Of a stretch of DNA of 64,000 nt, positions 4,639-63,492 are shown in pieces (positions within the stretch are counted from its first letter, which is position 1; every line of letters begins with the position of its first letter). The notes beneath the pieces were generated by a model that saw nothing but the letters and a program-made list of their open reading frames with translations, searched no databases and had not been told where the DNA came from. The position numbers and the translations under genes are program-made. This DNA comes from Arenicellales bacterium (GTDB taxonomy: Bacteria > Pseudomonadota > Gammaproteobacteria > Arenicellales > Poriferihabitantaceae): assembly GCA_965116595.1 (NCBI GenBank), contig OZ220708.1, forward strand, positions 169,187 through 233,186. Direction: 5' to 3'.

Positions 4639-6705
4639 ATGACACGGGATCCGCGCTACGACGTGCTGTTCGAGCCGGTGCGCATCGGCCCGGTGACCGC
4701 AAAGAACCGCTTCTACCAGGTCCCCCACTGCAACGGCGCCGGCGACTGGTCGCCGCGGGCGACGGCCGCGATGCGCGAGGTCAAGGCCGAAGGCGGCTGG
4801 GGCGTGGTCTGCACCGAGAACATGATGGTGGACGCGTGGAGCGACATCAGTCCGTTTCCGGCGGTGCGGCTGTGGAGCGACGAGGATCTGCCGGGGCAAC
4901 GCGAGATGGTCGAGCGTGTACACGGCCACGGCGCGCTGGCCGGCTGCGAGCTGGCCCATTTTGGAATCGCCGCCGCCAATCGCACCACTCGCCATCTCCC
5001 GCTCGGCCCATCGAGCCGCATGACCATGGAGTCCATCGACCCGCGGCAGTCGCGGCGCATGGACACCGGAGACATCCGGCGCTTTCGGCGCCGCCACCGC
5101 GAGGCCGCGTTACGGGCCAAGCGTGTCGGCTTCGACGTCGTCTACCTCTACTGCCTGCACGAGAATTCGATCATCTCGCAGTTCTTCTCGCGCAGGATCA
5201 ACGACCGCGGCGACGAGTACGGCGGTAGCTTCGAGAACCGGACCCGGCTGTTCCGCGAACTGCTCGAAGACACCCTGGATGCGGTGGGGGACCGCTGCGC
5301 GGTGGCGGTGAGGATTGCCGTGGCGGAACTGGCCGGCCAACCCGTCGTCGAGCCGTCGGAACTGCGCGACATCATCGAGTTGCAGGCCGAGGTGCCCGAC
5401 CTATGGGACGTCAACCTCAACGACTGGTCCTTCGACTCCGCCACCTCCCGGTTCGCGGGGGAAGGGCACGAGGAGCCGCACGTGGCGTTCGTCAAGTCCG
5501 TGACCACGAAGCCGGTGGTCGGGGTCGGCCGGTTCACCTCTCCCGAAACCATGCTCTCGCAGGTGAGGCGGGGCATCATCGACTTCGTCGGCGCGGCGCG
5601 CCCGTCCATTGCCGACCCGTTCCTGCCCAAGAAGATCGAGGAGGGCCGCCTCGACGAGATCCGCGAGTGCATCGGCTGCAACATCTGCGTGGCCGGCGAG
5701 AACAGCTTCACCCCCATGCGGTGCACGCAGAACCCGACCATCATGGAGGAGTGGCGCCGCGGCTGGCATCCCGAGCGGGTGCCGCGAAGCGAGCGTTGCG
5801 AGCCGGTGCTGATCGTGGGCGCCGGCGCGGCCGGTCTGGAGTGCGCGCTGACGCTCGCGCGGCGCGGCCATCCGGTGACGCTCGCCGAGGCATCGGAGCA
5901 TCTGGGCGGAAGGGTCCTGCGCGAGAGTCAGCTCCCCGGCCTCGCCGAGTGGATTCGGGTGCGCGACTACCGGGTCGGGCAGCTTCGGACGATGCCCGGT
6001 GTCGACATCTATCCGGCCTCCGAGCTGACCGCCGAGGACGTGCTCGAATTCGGGGCGCAGCGCGTGGTCTGCGCCACCGGGGCGTACTGGCGCCGCGACG
6101 GCTGTGGCCGCCACCACCGGGCGCCGCCGCTCGATCCGGCGGAGCCCGGACTGTTCACGCCGGACGACGTGATGGACGGCGCCTGCATCGAGGGTCCGGT
6201 CGTCATCTACGACGACGACGGGGCCTATCTGGCGGCGGCCCTTGCCGAGAAGCTGCTCGCGGACGACGCCGAGGTCGCCATCGTGACGCCGCACGCCACG
6301 TTCGCGCGGTGGACGGCCCTCACCCTCGAACAGGACCGTCTGACGCGGCGGATCCTGGAGCGGGGAGTCCGTCTGGAGCTGGCCACGCAGCTCGGGAGGT
6401 TCGACCACGAGGGCGTGCACTGCGAATGCGTGTATACCGGTCGGACGGTGAGCTTGCCTGCAGCCTCGCTCGTGGTCGTCACCTCGAGGATGCCGAACGA
6501 CCGCCTGTTTAGGGCACTTCAGGCTCGGCCGCAGGCGCTGTCCGAGGCGGGCATCGAGCGGGTCGACCACATCGGCGACTGCGATGCGCCCGGACTGATC
6601 GCTCATGCCGTCTTTGCCGGGCACGAGTTGGCGCGCCGATTCGATGCACCCGAGGGGGAGCAACTTTCCTGTCGGCGTGAGCACCCGGCGGCGATGCACG
6701 GGTGA
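4639..6705 (+). CDS. Trimethylamine/dimethylamine/histamine dehydrogenase-family iron-sulfur flavoprotein (OYE-like FMN domain plus FAD/NAD(P)-binding domain)
   Basis: The N-terminus [33 protein letters not shown] parallels TMADH ([33 protein letters not shown]), including the FMN-linking Cys. The 4Fe-4S motif CIGCNICV...C and the dinucleotide fold [12 protein letters not shown] are present. The gene is strikingly GC-rich. Confidence 0.85.
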   Translation: [688 protein letters not shown]

Positions 6706-7314
6706 CAACAGCTCGACCGAGGTAAAGTGAAAGAGGTTCATCACCAGATCGATCAGGCTTCGCGAGCGCATGGCCTGACTCCCGCATTAGTGACTGCCGG
6801 GGCGGCGGCGATTCCGGCAATCCCGAGGAATCGCGGCAGCTTGCCCACTCCGGAGCGAAAGTTGTTCCTGCAATCCGGGGGGGCATGTTTGATGCCATTC
6901 TGATGTAGAATATATCTATCTTATTGTTTTTATTATCTTCGTGAAATCCAAAAGCTGAACACGCCCGTGGTAAAGGCACCATACCCGCGACGGAAGACGC
7001 AGAGATTGACACGCTTCCCGAGCAGTTCCGTGCCGCGGACATCCGCCGTCCCTGCCAGGCCTGAGAAAGCAAGCAGCAGCAGGGCCCGAAGCGGCGCTCC
7101 GACGATGATGGGACAGCAGACAGACTGGAGTATTTTTGACGTACTTTATGCCGAAAATCGCCGCTTTGTCACCATTAAAACTAATGGTTTTGGGCAATTA
7201 ATCAGCCGTAATGCAGAAATTAATATCAAAAACCGGTATATGACGAGACCGGCAACCGGATGACGATGCGCCGCACCGGGCATGATCGTCCCGGGGGCCC
7301 TGGGAGAAGGAAGG

Positions 7315-50412: not shown

Positions 50413-51005
50413 GTGGCACAAGCACAAAAAACCAACCACTCCCCCCTTGAGGGGGAGTCACAACCCGCCGAGCCGCCAGGCGATAGCGGGTGTGGTGGGG
50501 GGACCAACCGCCGAAGCCCGCCGGAGAGCCAGTGGGGGAAAATCAAACAATCCTATTCAGAAAAAACCCTGAACCGGGCAAAATCCCTGCGCCAGAACCA
50601 AACCGACGCAGAAGGTCTACTCTGGCACTATCTTCGCAACAAACAACTGGACGGCTACAAATTCCGTCGTCAACAACCCATTGGCCCGTACATTGTCGAT
50701 TTCGCCAGCTTGCCCGAAAAGTTGCTTATCGAACTGGACGGCGGCCAACACGCTGAACATGAAGACTACGATGAGCGGCGAGACCGATTCCTGAAAAGCA
50801 AGGGATACAGGGTACTGCGCTTCTGGAATAACGAAGTTTTCGAAAACTGCTTCGATGTGCTGGAGAATATATACCAGGCTTTAACATCCACCATTGACTC
50901 CCCCCATGAAGGAGAGCCGACTCAAACAACGCATCACTCCCCCTTGAGGGGGAGTCGGCAAAACAAGGGCGCTAGCCCGCAGGTGCGCCGGTGGGGGGAA
51001 ACGAG

Positions 51006-51009
<4 letters not shown>
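50413..51009 (+). CDS. DUF559 (Vsr/restriction-endonuclease-like) domain protein, copy 1, read through flanking palindromic repeats
   Basis: The core [74 protein letters not shown] is the DUF559 signature. The only in-frame start is GTG 50413. The stop TGA at 51007-51009 overlaps the hsdM ATG at 51006 (ATGA). Confidence 0.8.
50437..50502. repeat. Family A repeat (left flank of DUF559 copy 1)
   Basis: cactccccccttgagggggagtcacaacccgccgagccgccaggcgatagcgggtgtggtgggggg. Confidence 0.85.
50935..50998. repeat. Family A repeat variant (right flank of DUF559 copy 1)
   Basis: cactcccccttgagggggagtcggcaaaacaagggcgctagcccgcaggtgcgccggtgggggg. Confidence 0.75.
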
Positions 51010-52588
<1,579 letters not shown>

Positions 52589-52592
<4 letters not shown>

Positions 52593-52834
52593 CGGTACAC
52601 CAACTGATTCGGCTACTCAAGAACCACCCAGCCGACATGCGAGTCGTCGTCAACGGCTATGAGGAAGGTTACGATGATCTGTCTCCAGAACAGATTTCTG
52701 TTACATCTATCCGCCTGAACACCGGCAGAAGGGACTGGGAAGGATGCCACGGAGATATTGGCGACAAACCGAGTGACCGGATAGACAATTCACCTGTAGT
52801 CGAGGCTCTGATCTTGCGCCGCACATCGAATTGA
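52589..52834 (+). CDS. Hypothetical small protein (81 aa)
   Basis: ATG 52589 overlaps the hsdM stop (ATGA). The stop is 2 nt before the next ORF's ATG. I recognise no motif ([31 protein letters not shown]...). Confidence 0.5.
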
Positions 52835-52836
52835 CA

Positions 52837-53264
52837 ATGATGGACAATAACAACAACATGATTGACTACGACAAGTTCCAATTATCGCTGAAGCGTCTTG
52901 AGGAGCAATACGAAAACCACCGGACACTGGACCCGAACCTGCCGGAACTGATTCGTGAAGGGGTCTCCGAATCCGTCATCCAGAGATTCGAGACCTGCTA
53001 CGACTGCCTGTGGAAAGTATTGAAGCGATATCTGGTTGAGGGGCTTGGAGTCGTGGATGCGCCAAACAGCCCGAAACCGATTTTCAGGCTTGCAAGTGAA
53101 AATCATCTTTTCGCTTCGCCGATTGTGCAATGGCTGCAATACGCCGAGCTGCGTATCGGCACGGCGCATGACTATGACGGTGAAAAAGCGAAAGCCTGCC
53201 TGGCGCTGATGAATGATTTTATCGACGATGCAATCGGCCTGTACCAGACCATGAGCGGAAAGAC

Positions 53265-53274
<10 letters not shown>
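52837..53274 (+). CDS. HEPN-domain protein, HI0074-family nucleotidyltransferase substrate-binding protein
   Basis: VIQRFETCYDCLWKVLKRYL and the Rx4H motif RIGTAHDYD match the HI0074/HEPN family. It overlaps the downstream MNT ORF by 10 nt. Confidence 0.85.
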
Positions 53275-55613
<2,339 letters not shown>

Positions 55614-55650
55614 TTTGCTACGCTGTCTTCTGAATTCCATCTCTGCGCTC

Positions 55651-56664
55651 ATGACGAAGTTTAAATCTGATTTAGTCCGCATTATCAAACAAAATTTTGA
55701 TAATGCAGGTGTCGCTTATGACAACAACATGGATGTCTGTAGTTTGACGGCAAGCTATTTGGAAATGCTGAATAGAAGGATCGTTCCATTTCCCCGCACG
55801 GTTCATTTTTCCGAAGAAATACATAATTCGTTAGGTTCTCTCATAAGAGAATGCGACGTGGAGCGACAAGAAAAAGCGAGAGAGGCATGGACGACGGTCT
55901 TTTTCATTCGCTATCTTCTTGCAGAAGGCCAAAGTGTCAATGGATTCCTGAGTACAAGGATTGAATTTGCGACGGGGAAAGGGAGCAGAGACGGGCTTTT
56001 ATGGGATTTTGGTTTGCACCATTTCCATCTCAGTAGGAAACCCCATTCTGATAAGAAAATCTGGGAAAAAGGATTTGTCGAAAGATCGGACTATTTGCTT
56101 TTCGCTATAATAACTCAGAACCACGCATACTTAGTAGACGTAAGACCGCACCAAGACCCTCAAAACCTCGGATGGGTTCGGCAGGAGTTGCGTAAAATCG
56201 TATATAGAAACTGGCCGGAATTGATTGAACCCCATATTCTTCGAGGTGTGCGGGGCGACATGGTGACGGATGAGGAACTCAGGGAACTCAGAAGAAAGAA
56301 CGTCAATCACTGTCCAGAACTCGGCGGTAGGGCGGTCGCACCACTTGGTGGCGGAACTATGGCGGATGGTTCGAGCACTTTGTGCAAAGTCATGGCAATG
56401 AGGCTGCTGCATGAAATTGAACGTCATCAATCTTACTTCGACACTAAGCCGCCCGATCTTTTATCCGCACTCAAGGACAAAGGGCCAGACATAGCAGGTG
56501 AGATAGAATTCGAGCTTGTCTTATTGGACGAATTGAATCCATCAGCCGAACCAATTGATTCCTTGAAAGACAATCACTGTCTGAGTAAGGACCTATATTA
56601 TTTTGGTTTGGCGGTGATGGAACGAACAACACGTTTACCTATAGCAATTTGTTTCAAAGAGTGA
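55651..56664 (+). CDS. Hypothetical protein (337 aa from ATG 55651; a TTG at 55615 is also possible)
   Basis: Long uninterrupted low-GC ORF starting 2-38 nt after hsdS. I recognise no family. It has the His-rich segment LLWDFGLHHFHLSRKPHSD and ERSDYLLFAIITQNHAYLVDVRPH. Confidence 0.6.
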   Translation: MTKFKSDLVRIIKQNFDNAGVAYDNNMDVCSLTASYLEMLNRRIVPFPRTVHFSEEIHNSLGSLIRECDVERQEKAREAWTTVFFIRYLLAEGQSVNGFLSTRIEFATGKGSRDGLLWDFGLHHFHLSRKPHSDKKIWEKGFVERSDYLLFAIITQNHAYLVDVRPHQDPQNLGWVRQELRKIVYRNWPELIEPHILRGVRGDMVTDEELRELRRKNVNHCPELGGRAVAPLGGGTMADGSSTLCKVMAMRLLHEIERHQSYFDTKPPDLLSALKDKGPDIAGEIEFELVLLDELNPSAEPIDSLKDNHCLSKDLYYFGLAVMERTTRLPIAICFKE

Positions 56665-56666
56665 CA

Positions 56667-56807
56667 TTGAAACCCATCACCGAAACCGAGGTCGAAGGCA
56701 CCGCGCTTGAATGGCTTGCAGGTCTCGGCTGGAACATCGTCCACGGCCCGAACATCGCCCCCGATACGCCGGGCGCGGAACGCGCTGACTACAGCAAGGT
56801 GACGCTG
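56667..56807 (+). pseudogene. hsdR: Remnant of an hsdR 5' end (first 47 codons only)
   Basis: 122 of 141 nt are identical, without gaps, to 60358-60498 (manual alignment). TTG replaces ATG. Homology stops abruptly at 56807. Confidence 0.85.
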
Positions 56808-56819
56808 ATGAAATTCGGA

Positions 56820-57236
56820 TCAGTCAATACCCAAAGCCTCAAAAGCCAGCTTCTTGACACACGCTACAAGTATCTCTGTTGATACTTTTATGCCGGTCTT
56901 CTGGATTTCATTTACAGCCTTTTCATACTGGCTTGCAGCGTTCCTTACATATTCTCCACCTTCTTGCGACAATCCATCCATGTAGGAAATGATAATACTT
57001 CGCCCTTCCAGTGTGCTTGCATCCAAAGTGCCTCCATCTAGCAAACCGGCTTGGATGGAACAAATAACAGAATAGTCAATGTTCGCCTGGTCATGATTCG
57101 GGAAAGCGGCATACAGGTCTGACGGACATAAATTTGATGGATACGGCACATCATCGCGCGCGAAGTGTCGAAGAATGTTCAACGTCAATTCTGTGTTTTC
57201 TATCATTGGTTCTTTACACCCTCTATCGGCAGGCAT
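56820..57236 (-). CDS. Small hypothetical protein, possibly DUF2513-like wHTH
   Basis: It is the third gene of the low-GC cassette. The C-terminal pattern IISYMDGLSQEGGEYVRNAASQYEKAVNEIQKTGIKVSTEIL...LAFEALG is reminiscent of DUF2513 (I.GLT.EGHEFL...). This is a weak assignment from memory. Confidence 0.4.
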   Translation of the reverse strand: MPADRGCKEPMIENTELTLNILRHFARDDVPYPSNLCPSDLYAAFPNHDQANIDYSVICSIQAGLLDGGTLDASTLEGRSIIISYMDGLSQEGGEYVRNAASQYEKAVNEIQKTGIKVSTEILVACVKKLAFEALGID

Positions 57237-57240
57237 TCAC

Positions 57241-58902
57241 TCATGGTTTTGTGCTCCCGGATACCAGTTGTTTCACACGCCCTTTGATATTTTCGTACGT
57301 TACGGTTAAATGGTTTTTTGCGATCTTTGTCAACAAACCTGTATGGCCCACTACATTTCTGACTGGTTTGTACCTAACCGCATCCTTACACAAAGGCGCT
57401 GATTTAGAACCTTCCACCGTTACAGATAAGTAATCCATGCCCAGATAGCTCAATTTTCCCTGATCTTCCCGAATCTCAAAACTTATATTTGCCTTTCTTT
57501 TTCTATCAGCCTCCCTCTCTTCCCATGTCGTGGTTTCTTTTAGCGCACCGTCTTTGAGTTCCAATTCATGTTCCTTGATAAATTTTCGCAGTAAGTTTTC
57601 CGACAAAAAACAGTCAATATAAGCCAGCGAATTAAAGGCTGCGTCATCTCGTAAATCATCCAGCCAGGTCTCCACCTGATCTTTCGCGGGAGCTTCATCA
57701 TCGGGTTTATATTCCTCTCGCGCAGCGGAGTACAAATCCCGCGCCTTTCGTTCTTTTCTGGTTTTTCTCGGATTTTCTTCGTCACCTTCTTTACCTCTTC
57801 CCAGTCGAAGTTCATCCCATTTATCCATAATCCGGGGGAGAGCGTCACGCTTTAGAAAATCCAGCAGCGCCTGAAAATTCTCATCGTCCTCTACGATACC
57901 TTCCCGACTACTCGTGAATGGATCTTTCCCCGATTGATCCATGGAATCAAAGTGAATCTGTCCGTAAATGTAACTCTCAATAATTCTCTGTGTCGGTATA
58001 TGTCGCAATATGTTTTTTTCACGTAATCGACCATTTACGAAAAGATCAATGGTGGCACGTTCTTCAGTGCCTGTGATTTTCAAGTTCCTCGGTTTTTCAA
58101 CAGTCGCTAAAAATCCTCTGATATCAAGAGTTGTAGGCAGATAAACAGCATCACCCTTCAGTTTCCCAAGTTCGGACACATAATCGTCTGTGTGCTGGTT
58201 TATCAGCCATAGAAATTCCGTAGCGTCTGTCAAATCTTTGAGATCATCCATGGTAACTTCTTCATCGTTCACAAAGATCGTGAATTCCTTGTCAAGTAAT
58301 GAGAACCGGAAACTCATTGCAAGCAGTTTCTTTATGTGGGGAATGGAGTTCTTTAACTGGTCTTTCGTTTCTTCAAAGACAATAATGGTCCCTTGGTCGT
58401 GACCACTTTGCAGGTCCGTGATCAAATCAAAATCCAAATCTTCAAGAGGATACTCTTCCGGTTGAAGGTCCTGGGTGATTGCTTCGTCCAAACCGGAATT
58501 GTCTATTATGCCCCCGATATAGGTGGCGCCGCAGGTTTTGGAAAAAACAGAAACCCTTTTCGCACAGGACAGTAACGCCAGTTTCCCAATTCCTTTTGCG
58601 CCAATGAAAGGTCTGTTGCTGGAGGTCTTCATGCGTCCATCAACCCGTTTGGAATAACCAATCTTCAAGAATTTTGATTGAAAATCTTCTCTATCCATCC
58701 CGGTCCCGTCATCCTTGATACTGAAAACGGAGTTCTCGCGATCAATGTTAATCCAGACATTCCTGGCATCGGCGTCCCAGGAATTGGAGATCGCCTCACC
58801 AAGAACAGTAATAAAGTTACGGTACAGATTGCGTCCAAGGTGGTTGAGGACACTCAACGAAATAGCGAACCGGAAAGTATTTTCGTCGTCAGGAAATGCC
58901 AC
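57241..58902 (-). CDS. GHKL (HATPase_c_3/MORC-like) ATPase with an uncharacterised C-terminal region carrying an Rx4H HEPN-like motif
   Basis: Bergerat-fold motifs are present: LGEAISNSWDA (N box), KDDGTGMD (G1) and IGAKGIGKLA (G2). RNVVGH is encoded at 57343-57360. The GTG start at 58902 overlaps the dcm stop by 14 nt. Confidence 0.8.
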   Translation of the reverse strand: MAFPDDENTFRFAISLSVLNHLGRNLYRNFITVLGEAISNSWDADARNVWINIDRENSVFSIKDDGTGMDREDFQSKFLKIGYSKRVDGRMKTSSNRPFIGAKGIGKLALLSCAKRVSVFSKTCGATYIGGIIDNSGLDEAITQDLQPEEYPLEDLDFDLITDLQSGHDQGTIIVFEETKDQLKNSIPHIKKLLAMSFRFSLLDKEFTIFVNDEEVTMDDLKDLTDATEFLWLINQHTDDYVSELGKLKGDAVYLPTTLDIRGFLATVEKPRNLKITGTEERATIDLFVNGRLREKNILRHIPTQRIIESYIYGQIHFDSMDQSGKDPFTSSREGIVEDDENFQALLDFLKRDALPRIMDKWDELRLGRGKEGDEENPRKTRKERKARDLYSAAREEYKPDDEAPAKDQVETWLDDLRDDAAFNSLAYIDCFLSENLLRKFIKEHELELKDGALKETTTWEEREADRKRKANISFEIREDQGKLSYLGMDYLSVTVEGSKSAPLCKDAVRYKPVRNVVGHTGLLTKIAKNHLTVTYENIKGRVKQLVSGSTKP

Positions 58903-59983
58903 GGGAAATTAAATGTTCAGGGGTTACAAGTAAATTTCCTATTGCTTCGGCAAGTTTGACTGGCACAGCATTCCCTATCCATCTCCCGACTTCCGAAAAG
59001 GAGGGTTTCTCCTCTGGTGGCAGAAACTCATAATAATGCGGAAATGACTGCAAAATAGCGGCTTCTCGAAGGGATATGGCCCGATCCTGTTCGGGATGCC
59101 CGAACCGGCCATTACCATACCCGTAACACTGGGTTGTCATGGTCGGAGATGGATTGTCCCAAGTCATACGCGCATATACGCTGGCAAAGGTCTTGCCTGA
59201 AAGTTTACGGTGGCAATCAGCGCGCAAATCTTCCGGCCAGTCACGCCAAGTGCCCCCCGGCTTTGAGGCTCGAATACGGCGAAAATTGATTTCCGCCAAT
59301 GATCGCGAGATGTGCAACGGGTCTATGGGATTTGGCTGGCCCGCTTCAATTTTATCGAGCGACCCTATTGCCTGACGAACAGATATTGCTTCTGCATGTG
59401 TCGGTTTCAGTGGTTCAAGTCCTACTGATCTTGAAGCGACCAAAACCAACCGTCTGCGTTTTTGAGGGATCCCGAATTCCTCACATTTCACTATGAACCA
59501 CTTGACATGATAGCCTGCGCTATCCAGATTATCACAGAAATCATTAAAAACACGTCCATCCTTGTATTTGATCAGCGCCGGCACATTTTCCATGGTTACA
59601 AAGTCCGGCTGCACCGTTACGGCCAACTCTCCAAATTTCGCAACCAGTTCCCATCTTGGGTCTTCGCCATAGCGATGTTTATACGTTGAAAATGGCTGGC
59701 ACGGAGCGCATCCCGCAAGAACGGAAGGTACAGTACCCGTATAGTGGCTTTGAACTTCCCTGGCCGTTAGTTTCCCAACATCCCGAGCGAAAAAGCTGGC
59801 GTTGTTGTTTTTTTGAAAAGCGTATTTGCATCGGGCATCTACATCATATCCTGCGATGATATCGAAACCCGCCAGCATCAAGCCGTGACTGAGAGCTCCA
59901 ATGCCGCAAAAAAGATCAACGACCTGACCCCTGTCCTCGCCAGTGTAAGGCATCCCGTGTTCGGTTAACATGGAGTTAACCAT
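58889..59983 (-). CDS. dcm: DNA (cytosine-5)-methyltransferase
   Basis: All diagnostic motifs are present: DLFCGIG (I), GCAPCQPFS (IV), MENVPAL (VI), QKRRR (VIII) and GNAVP (X). Confidence 0.95.
   Translation of the reverse strand: MVNSMLTEHGMPYTGEDRGQVVDLFCGIGALSHGLMLAGFDIIAGYDVDARCKYAFQKNNNASFFARDVGKLTAREVQSHYTGTVPSVLAGCAPCQPFSTYKHRYGEDPRWELVAKFGELAVTVQPDFVTMENVPALIKYKDGRVFNDFCDNLDSAGYHVKWFIVKCEEFGIPQKRRRLVLVASRSVGLEPLKPTHAEAISVRQAIGSLDKIEAGQPNPIDPLHISRSLAEINFRRIRASKPGGTWRDWPEDLRADCHRKLSGKTFASVYARMTWDNPSPTMTTQCYGYGNGRFGHPEQDRAISLREAAILQSFPHYYEFLPPEEKPSFSEVGRWIGNAVPVKLAEAIGNLLVTPEHLISRGIS

Positions 59984-60357: not shown

Positions 60358-63492
<3,135 letters not shown>

Follow-up and report, generated by a model that had tools for sequence, protein, structure and literature searches.

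The window analyzed here is a 64,000-nucleotide (nt) stretch of contig OZ220708.1 from an uncultured Arenicellales bacterium. It contains a type I restriction-modification (R-M) operon in which a gene of 337 amino acids (aa) lies on the forward strand at positions 55651 to 56664, between hsdS and a remnant of the 5′ end of hsdR. An earlier note on this DNA described the open reading frame (ORF) as unrecognizable and proposed it as a candidate uncharacterized defense or R-M-accessory protein, possibly a metal-dependent nuclease. On the strength of profile matches we are highly confident that the ORF constitutes a divergent member of the PD-T4-7 family of antiphage defense genes, and structural models predict that it carries a toxin-like core of the RelE/ParE fold.

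The placement of the ORF at the hsdS-hsdR junction was confirmed. The upstream hsdS frame ends at position 55613, leaving 37 nt before the start of the ORF, and the TGA stop codon (56662 to 56664) is separated from the TTG that opens the hsdR remnant at position 56667 only by the dinucleotide CA, the same 2-nt gap that had been reported before. The low GC content noted earlier was also reproduced, the ORF having a value of 0.447 (0.45 at third codon positions, GC3) versus 0.593 for hsdR (GC3 of 0.70) and 0.559 for hsdM, and the peptides GLLWDFGLHHFHLSRKPHSD, DYLLFAIITQNHAYLVDVRPHQD, and DEELRELRRKN quoted from the ORF were all found in its translation. A six-frame ORF list showed that the only long frame at this site runs from a TTG at position 55615 to position 56664 (349 aa), and that an in-frame ATG at position 55651 yields the 337-aa product. 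In an alignment of 33 homologues, nearly all N termini fall within 1 to 2 residues of the methionine encoded at 55651, and public data hold an identical 337-aa protein (P0001); position 55651 is therefore the likely start codon. The TTG at 55615 was considered as a start and rejected because the extension that it would add is not common to the aligned homologues. The ratio of nonsynonymous to synonymous divergence (dN/dS) was 0.27 and 0.20 in comparisons with two homologues, which indicates that the frame is under purifying selection, and homologues are numerous (one database holds 305, and another holds 3023 clusters at 50% identity). Judged by these sequence measures, the ORF is a real gene and a chance frame is ruled out.

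Scans of the ORF protein against Pfam and NCBIfam produced no match, a Pfam search with 34 homologues, run at E values up to 10, produced only noise (a single ParE_toxin match with an E value of 0.24), and a profile search of the sequences in the Protein Data Bank (PDB) returned only a chance match to cyanophycin synthase. The defense-specific models of PADLOC, on the other hand, named the gene at once. Model PDLC04066 (PD-T4-7) matched residues 3 to 291 with an E value of 2.4e-38, covering profile positions 9 to 283 of 337, and the second PD-T4-7 model, PDLC04065, matched with an E value of 1.8e-36. Moreover, 61 of 61 diverse relatives, 23 to 51% identical to the ORF, matched both of these models and no other PADLOC model. 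The description of the protein as unrecognizable was thus not borne out, and first-pass calls of this kind should be checked against PADLOC or DefenseFinder, given that the general domain libraries miss such a gene. A full-library HMMER search recovered the 3023 clusters at an E value of ≤1e-3 and 2426 of them at ≤1e-10; by this count, the PD-T4-7 family is large, with about 3000 clusters at 50% identity.

The PD-T4-7 family was discovered in a functional selection on phage T4 (Vassallo et al. 2022, PMC9519451), in which the prototype, a single gene of Escherichia coli UMB0103 (RRN43039.1) cloned alone with its native promoter, protected E. coli. The same study grouped it with abortive-infection, toxin-antitoxin-like systems under the label "RelE toxin-like," on the basis of HHpred matches to YafO_toxin (51% over residues 118 to 164) and YafQ_toxin (11%) given in its supplement (PMC9519451). 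A later survey placed PD-T4-7 among RNase-type systems with a mechanism still to be elucidated, and no mechanistic study of PD-T4-7 was found in the literature that we searched. That the ORF is a defense gene is very probable, as had been proposed, and PD-T4-7 has already been validated in E. coli. The family itself is known, and the ORF adds a divergent example to it rather than a new system.

We built a full-length AlphaFold2 model of the ORF protein with a 34-sequence alignment, modeled residues 44 to 172 separately, and searched the PDB with both models using Foldseek. The full-length model reached a mean predicted local distance difference test score (pLDDT) of 87.4 and a predicted template modeling score (pTM) of 0.84, and its top 35 PDB matches all belonged to the RelE/ParE superfamily, with probabilities of up to 1.0 and template modeling scores normalized to the target (TMt) of 0.6 to 0.66. 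These matches included ParE2, RelK, YafQ, YoeB, HigB, HP0894, PrpT, and the RelE-domain protein Cami1. The model of residues 44 to 172 alone (pLDDT of 85.9) gave 38 top matches, again all from the RelE/ParE superfamily, with a best E value of 1.5e-3, a TMt of ≤0.67, and a score normalized to the query (TMq) of ≤0.51. Because the domain-only model matches the same superfamily by itself, the fold can be confined to this segment, which is encoded at positions 55780 to 56166 of the forward strand; in the models, residues 44 to 172 adopt the RelE/ParE toxin fold. The core consists of a strand (residues 50 to 53), two helices (55 to 65 and 70 to 92), a poorly modeled insert, and three further strands (123 to 126, 148 to 154, and 158 to 166), in line with the compact fold of the superfamily, in which one strand and two helices accompany a three-stranded antiparallel sheet. 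The rest of the protein, namely two N-terminal helices and residues 173 to 337, had no significant structural match, and a structure search of a viral library returned nothing significant.

These results bear on two points of the earlier note, which had singled out a histidine-rich patch followed by a beta-strand-like hydrophobic run and had recommended HMMER and a Foldseek search with an AlphaFold model as a check. Both the patch and the hydrophobic run do fall on predicted strands, β2 to β4, of a RelE/ParE-type toxin fold, and the idea of a metal-dependent nuclease found no support. The check led to a defense family, through the PADLOC models, and the structural match that it produced is to the RelE/ParE fold. 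For PD-T4-7, where a 51% HHpred match had hinted at RelE, the model of the ORF thereby provides a consistent assignment to the RelE/ParE fold.

Conservation highlights four candidate catalytic residues within this core, encoded between positions 56020 and 56151 of the forward strand: H124 (56020 to 56022), H126 (56026 to 56028), R145 (56083 to 56085), and H167 (56149 to 56151). Across the 61 relatives, D7, G93, D114, H124, H126, H167, and G235 are invariant, and R49, S54, R145, N187-W188-P189, R214, and G233-G234 are conserved in at least 90%. In the model, H124 and H126 lie on β2, R145 just before β3, and H167 just after β4. When the family profile was compared with aligned YafO homologues, the segment WGIHHfHL...RSd fell on VaHiHL...rTsd (P of 0.0012, probability of 19%), and comparisons with YafQ and YafO of E. 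coli as single sequences returned nothing. By eye, the stretch YLLFAI...YLVDVRPH of the ORF can be set against HLVYCQ...LLIAILKPEPH of YafO and DWILIY...RTGTH of YafQ, and the histidine and arginine pattern of the ORF parallels DHPL...RDAHVEPDWILIY...RTGTH of YafQ. An RNase-type site formed by H124, H126, R145, and H167 is therefore plausible from the model, and these four named residues make the choice between an RNase and a gyrase poison directly testable.

The genomic surroundings of the family were surveyed with one genome per species, which gave 41 loci (designated by L numbers below), all from metagenome-assembled genomes (MAGs), and five genes on each side were clustered. The loci span about ten higher-level lineages, including Binatia, Nitrospirales, Latescibacterota, Chloroflexota, Acidobacteriota, Gemmatimonadota, Alpha- and Gammaproteobacteria, Rhodothermaceae, and Thermodesulfobacteriota. 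In 10 of them, the homologue lies in or beside an hsd operon of the same lineage as that of the window (HsdM and HsdR 68 to 80% identical): in seven it occupies the hsdS-hsdR interval in the same orientation, and in one each it is upstream of hsdM, downstream of hsdR, and by hsdR fragments. As a 20-kb neighborhood makes up roughly 0.5% of a 4-Mb genome, this association amounts, on a rough estimate, to a strong enrichment. Apart from the hsd genes in this subset, no neighbor recurred across the 41 loci, which fits a single-gene system, and no small neighboring gene was conserved as an adjacent cognate antitoxin.

The idea that the hsdS-hsdR slot receives defense cargo was upheld by the related loci, in which the same slot holds an AbiP2-type reverse transcriptase (L006), HEC-01A/B (L041), a PARIS-like AriAB fusion (L023), a PDC-S15 FRG-TPR protein with PDC-M24B (L004), a PIN_4 protein (L019), and Fic/RhuM (L042). 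Among the 31 loci that carry the homologue away from this hsd lineage, the neighbors include HEC-05, MADS, Druantia, and pAgo genes, a Schlafen-like protein, type I, II, and III methyltransferases, a type ISP enzyme, integrases, and recombinases. The survey that the earlier note had called for thus supported a defense context, with 10 of 41 loci in or beside the hsd lineage and many defense neighbors, while about three quarters of the loci proved to be without hsd genes within 10 kb and some had housekeeping settings. Close homologues on metagenome contigs were found in plasmid-like surroundings (RepA_C, relaxase, MobC, and ParA), on transposase-rich contigs, or beside DISARM-like genes, and one stands alone among metabolic genes. 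A tblastn search of phage genomes and a scan of viral contigs revealed no homologue. A plasmid search gave only 12 weak partial matches, all annotated as "hypothetical protein," and a blastn search of all complete E. coli genomes with a homologue from a Klebsiella plasmid gave no match.

Two further associations were observed among the homologues. In L033 (9995 to 12544), the homologue is continued in the same frame by pentapeptide repeats and an FRG domain, which gives an 849-aa frame, and in L004 (11122 to 12699), the gene next to the homologue encodes the FRG-TPR protein (PDC-S15); the pairing of FRG domains with PD-T4-7 homologues may be recurrent or may be an assembly artifact. In addition, an identical homologue, P0008, was found in four different flanks (L046 to L049), always after the same protein of 195 to 203 aa (6296 to 6907). 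We considered this upstream gene as an hsdS remnant and rejected the idea, as it encodes an unrelated 203-aa protein with a hydrophobic N terminus and no family match; in that lineage it could serve as a partner of P0008 or belong to a small mobile unit.

In the window, the operon begins with hsdM (50991 to 52592, forward strand), of which tblastn found copies with 68 to 80% identity in 9 related loci, followed on the same strand by an 84-aa ORF (52580 to 52834) and by a gene for an HI0074/HepT-like nucleotidyltransferase substrate-binding protein (52831 to 53274; Pfam NTase_sub_bind, E value of 7.9e-20; TIGR01987, E value of 1.3e-12, below the cutoff of that model). This gene overlaps a forward-strand frame of 782 codons (53265 to 55613), in which an MntA-like nucleotidyltransferase (Pfam Polbeta/NTP_transf_2) is fused to the N terminus of HsdS (Methylase_S; PADLOC Specificity_I, E value of 4.6e-89), with a DUF559 domain (E value of 2.3e-41) inserted in frame between the two target-recognition halves. 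The MntA-HsdS fusion is contiguous in L004, L006, L011, L013, L015, L019, and L041, and, judging from these sequences, this R-M lineage appears to incorporate a type VII toxin-antitoxin pair. Between hsdS and the ORF no promoter- or terminator-like site was found, and cotranscription of the ORF with hsdS is consequently likely.

Beyond the ORF, the hsdR stub (56667 to 56807, forward strand) is 47 codons long and opens with TTG in place of the original start codon; it shares 37 of 47 residues with the beginning of the intact hsdR gene at 60358. It is followed by a second cargo block on the reverse strand (56820 to 59983), which encodes a 138-aa protein without a match, a GHKL-ATPase protein (Pfam HATPase_c_3), and a C5 cytosine (Dcm) methyltransferase (DNA_methylase). 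For this block, PADLOC reported REase_II and MTase_II, and NF050001 matched with an E value of 1.3e-87, below its cutoff; the GHKL-ATPase protein, of 553 aa, resembles the BbrUII/HgiDII restriction enzymes over its first roughly 375 residues only. The intact hsdR gene occupies positions 60358 to 63492 of the forward strand, and its copies in 9 related loci are 70 to 78% identical.

A palindromic repeat, CACTCCCCCCTTGAGGGGGAGTC (translated as HSPLEGES), was also observed in this part of the window, at 50434 to 50488, 50939 to 50956, 52299 to 52353, 54235 to 54345, 54726 to 54780, and 54851 to 54878. It lies on both sides of two DUF559 copies, which have in common a 300-nt direct repeat with 84% identity, one just upstream of hsdM (50413 to 51009) and the other in frame inside the hsdS frame (53265 to 55613). 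A solo repeat lies inside hsdM, and DUF559 splits hsdM in L011 and L013. These features resemble those expected of a small mobile DUF559 element, bounded by hairpins, that enters hsd genes and leaves their reading frame intact.

Comparison with related loci allowed us to reconstruct a possible history of the junction. The block from 55533 to 56779, which runs from the last part of hsdS through the ORF into the stub, has 91% identity to L042, whereas the flanking hsdM and hsdR genes are only about 82% identical; in L001, the block of ORF plus stub is 73% identical. Between the window and L042, synonymous divergence (dS) is 0.19 for the ORF and 0.83 for hsdR. Downstream of the stub, L042 carries Fic/RhuM and then hsdR, and the window carries the methylase/restriction block and then hsdR. 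Stubs of the hsdR 5′ end, 35 to 56 codons long, recur beside different cargo in L019 (7227 to 7394), L023 (9768 to 9914), L001 (11962 to 12419), and L042 (4376 to 4537). Since the stubs recur beside different cargo and the dS of hsdR so exceeds that of the ORF, these data suggest that segments composed of cargo plus hsdR were replaced repeatedly. The simplest reading would be an ancestral hsdS-ORF-hsdR arrangement that was later hit by such incoming segments, which left stubs of varying length, and the locus offers a clear example of cargo stacking at the 5′ end of hsdR. HsdM and HsdR, each 68 to 80% identical to their counterparts in distinct phyla, point to an operon that spread as a whole, and recently, among members of one community; several of the bin names (APA_, RHO1_, RHO3_, and SB0662_) resemble those of what we take to be sponge-microbiome bins.

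With moderate confidence, and largely from the models, we propose that the ORF product is an RNase of the RelE/YafO kind, self-contained and triggered by phage, whose action halts translation and makes the infection abortive. In this scheme, the core of residues 44 to 172 would act as a YafO/YafQ-like endoribonuclease, probably ribosome dependent, using H124, H126, R145, and H167. The N-terminal helices and the C-terminal domain (residues 173 to 337, with the conserved NWP and GGG motifs) would keep the toxin core silent until some phage cue releases it, upon which translation in the infected cell would be shut down and the infection would be aborted. Carried as cargo by a type I R-M operon that spreads horizontally, and probably cotranscribed with hsdS, the ORF in the hsdS-hsdR slot would provide a second layer of defense against phages that escape restriction. 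Several observations weigh against this proposal. The clade of the ORF is only about 25 to 30% identical to the bulk of the PD-T4-7 family as represented by the 61 relatives, and its placement in the family was made through profile models. The link to RelE is structural only, with Pfam and PDB sequence searches empty and a Foldseek E value of 1.5e-3 at best; the YafO profile comparison reaches only 19% probability, and the correspondence of residues with YafQ and YafO was judged by eye. ParE gyrase poisons score as well as RNases, so that the fold alone is no proof of RNase chemistry, and some PD-T4-7 homologues lie among housekeeping genes.

The equal standing of ParE2, ParDE2, PfiT, and PrpT with YafQ and YoeB among the best structural matches leads directly to another reading, in which the core would act like ParE, poisoning DNA gyrase and blocking replication while leaving RNA uncut, again with abortive infection as the outcome. 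We regard this as rather unlikely, because three invariant histidines and a near-invariant arginine on or beside the strands of the sheet suggest the kind of site seen in RNase members of the superfamily, and ParE toxins are not known to have such catalytic residues. The only signal at the level of sequence also points to the RNase YafO, both in our profile comparison and in the HHpred table of the original study (PMC9519451). The metal-dependent nuclease of the earlier note would use the same histidines in another way, and three histidines of the HHFH cluster are indeed conserved and H167 is invariant. Structures of HNH, His-Me, PD-(D/E)XK, or other metal nucleases were, however, absent among the Foldseek PDB matches listed, no such family emerged from the Pfam, NCBIfam, or PDB sequence searches, and the histidines are located on a strand of a predicted RelE/ParE fold, whose RNase members are not known to need metal; we therefore consider a metal nuclease highly improbable. 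Two other identities suggested by genes known from type I loci were rejected: PADLOC, Pfam, and NCBIfam gave no hit for PrrC or RloC, nor for an ATPase of any kind, and the fold differs from that of these anticodon nucleases, and no HEPN family matched in Pfam or PADLOC, nor was any HEPN RNase among the structural matches listed.

The position of the ORF raises the possibility of a guard in the style of PrrC, which is a precedent for a protein wired to a type I R-M enzyme: HsdMSR would keep the ORF protein latent, and a phage antirestriction factor would switch the toxin on. The same-strand location in the hsdS-hsdR slot, which is seen in the window, in L042, and in seven species-level loci of one hsd lineage from several phyla, would suit such a role, as would the failure to find a promoter- or terminator-like site between hsdS and the ORF. 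Nevertheless, about three quarters of the homologues have no hsd genes within 10 kb, others occur on plasmid-like contigs or alone among housekeeping genes, and the E. coli prototype works when cloned alone; moreover, the slot hosts many unrelated cargoes, so that a recombination hot spot accounts for the position, and a guard is in our judgment unlikely. A combined picture, in which the junction is a cassette-swapping site where cargo and a new hsdR are exchanged and old stubs are left behind, with the ORF as a PrrC-style guard, seems equally doubtful; if true, the ORF protein would remain silent while HsdMSR is intact and would be unleashed once a phage disables restriction. The toxin fold and the company of transposases, plasmid replication and mobilization genes, and other toxin-antitoxin genes could also be accommodated by a selfish addiction or stabilization module that aids the persistence of the island and has no real antiphage role. 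This is distinctly improbable, given that no antitoxin partner gene is conserved, that the neighbors are mostly defense genes, and that the PD-T4-7 prototype protects against phages (PMC9519451). A self-contained, phage-triggered RNase hence remains the reading that we favor.

Compared with known systems, the ORF is closest to the PD-T4-7 prototype, which is likewise a single gene of similar size (about 352 versus 337 aa). The PD-T4-7 profile models cover about 85% of the ORF protein, and the weak YafO/YafQ HHpred region of the prototype (residues 118 to 165) coincides with the HxHL...RS...PH motif of the ORF. The ORF differs from most of the family in belonging to a clade that is 23 to 51%, mostly 25 to 30%, identical to the sampled relatives and in its C-terminal roughly 45 residues, which are not common to most members. 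It also differs from the prototype in its origin (MAGs of uncultured bacteria versus enterobacteria) and in being embedded in a type I R-M operon; phage protection is known only for the prototype. The type II toxins YafO, YafQ, and YoeB share the predicted fold of residues 44 to 172 of the ORF, in which conserved histidines and arginine on or beside the strands are candidate counterparts of their catalytic residues. They lack significant sequence similarity to the ORF, which is 3 to 4 times larger because it has additional segments at both termini as well as an insert of about 25 residues, and unlike these toxins, which have an antitoxin, the ORF has no conserved antitoxin gene beside it.

The proposed logic of the ORF, with a toxin and inhibitory or sensor parts joined in one chain and abortive infection as the result, resembles that of CapRel-type fused toxin-antitoxins, although the toxin fold differs and the autoinhibition of the ORF is a hypothesis. 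Cami1, a ribosome-dependent RNase of CRISPR immunity, senses cyclic tetra-adenylate via its CARF domain. It is a larger immune protein that joins a RelE-type domain with a regulatory domain, a sensor in its case, as is proposed for the ORF; its structural match to the ORF is weak (PDB 8phb and 8phj, E values of 0.24 to 0.9), and neither CARF nor another Pfam domain was matched by the ORF. Finally, defense genes embedded in type I R-M operons are already established, as exemplified by TgvAB (PMC11411939) and by the "guilt-by-embedding" survey of Payne et al. 2024 (bioRxiv 10.1101/2024.01.29.577857). The ORF is unrelated to GmrSD and to PrrC, in which an ABC ATPase is joined to an anticodon nuclease, and most members of its family lie outside hsd operons. 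In its position between hsd genes and in its orientation, however, it matches PrrC, TgvAB, and the guilt-by-embedding candidates, and the locus shows a type I R-M operon accumulating stacked defense cargo in uncultured bacteria of several phyla.

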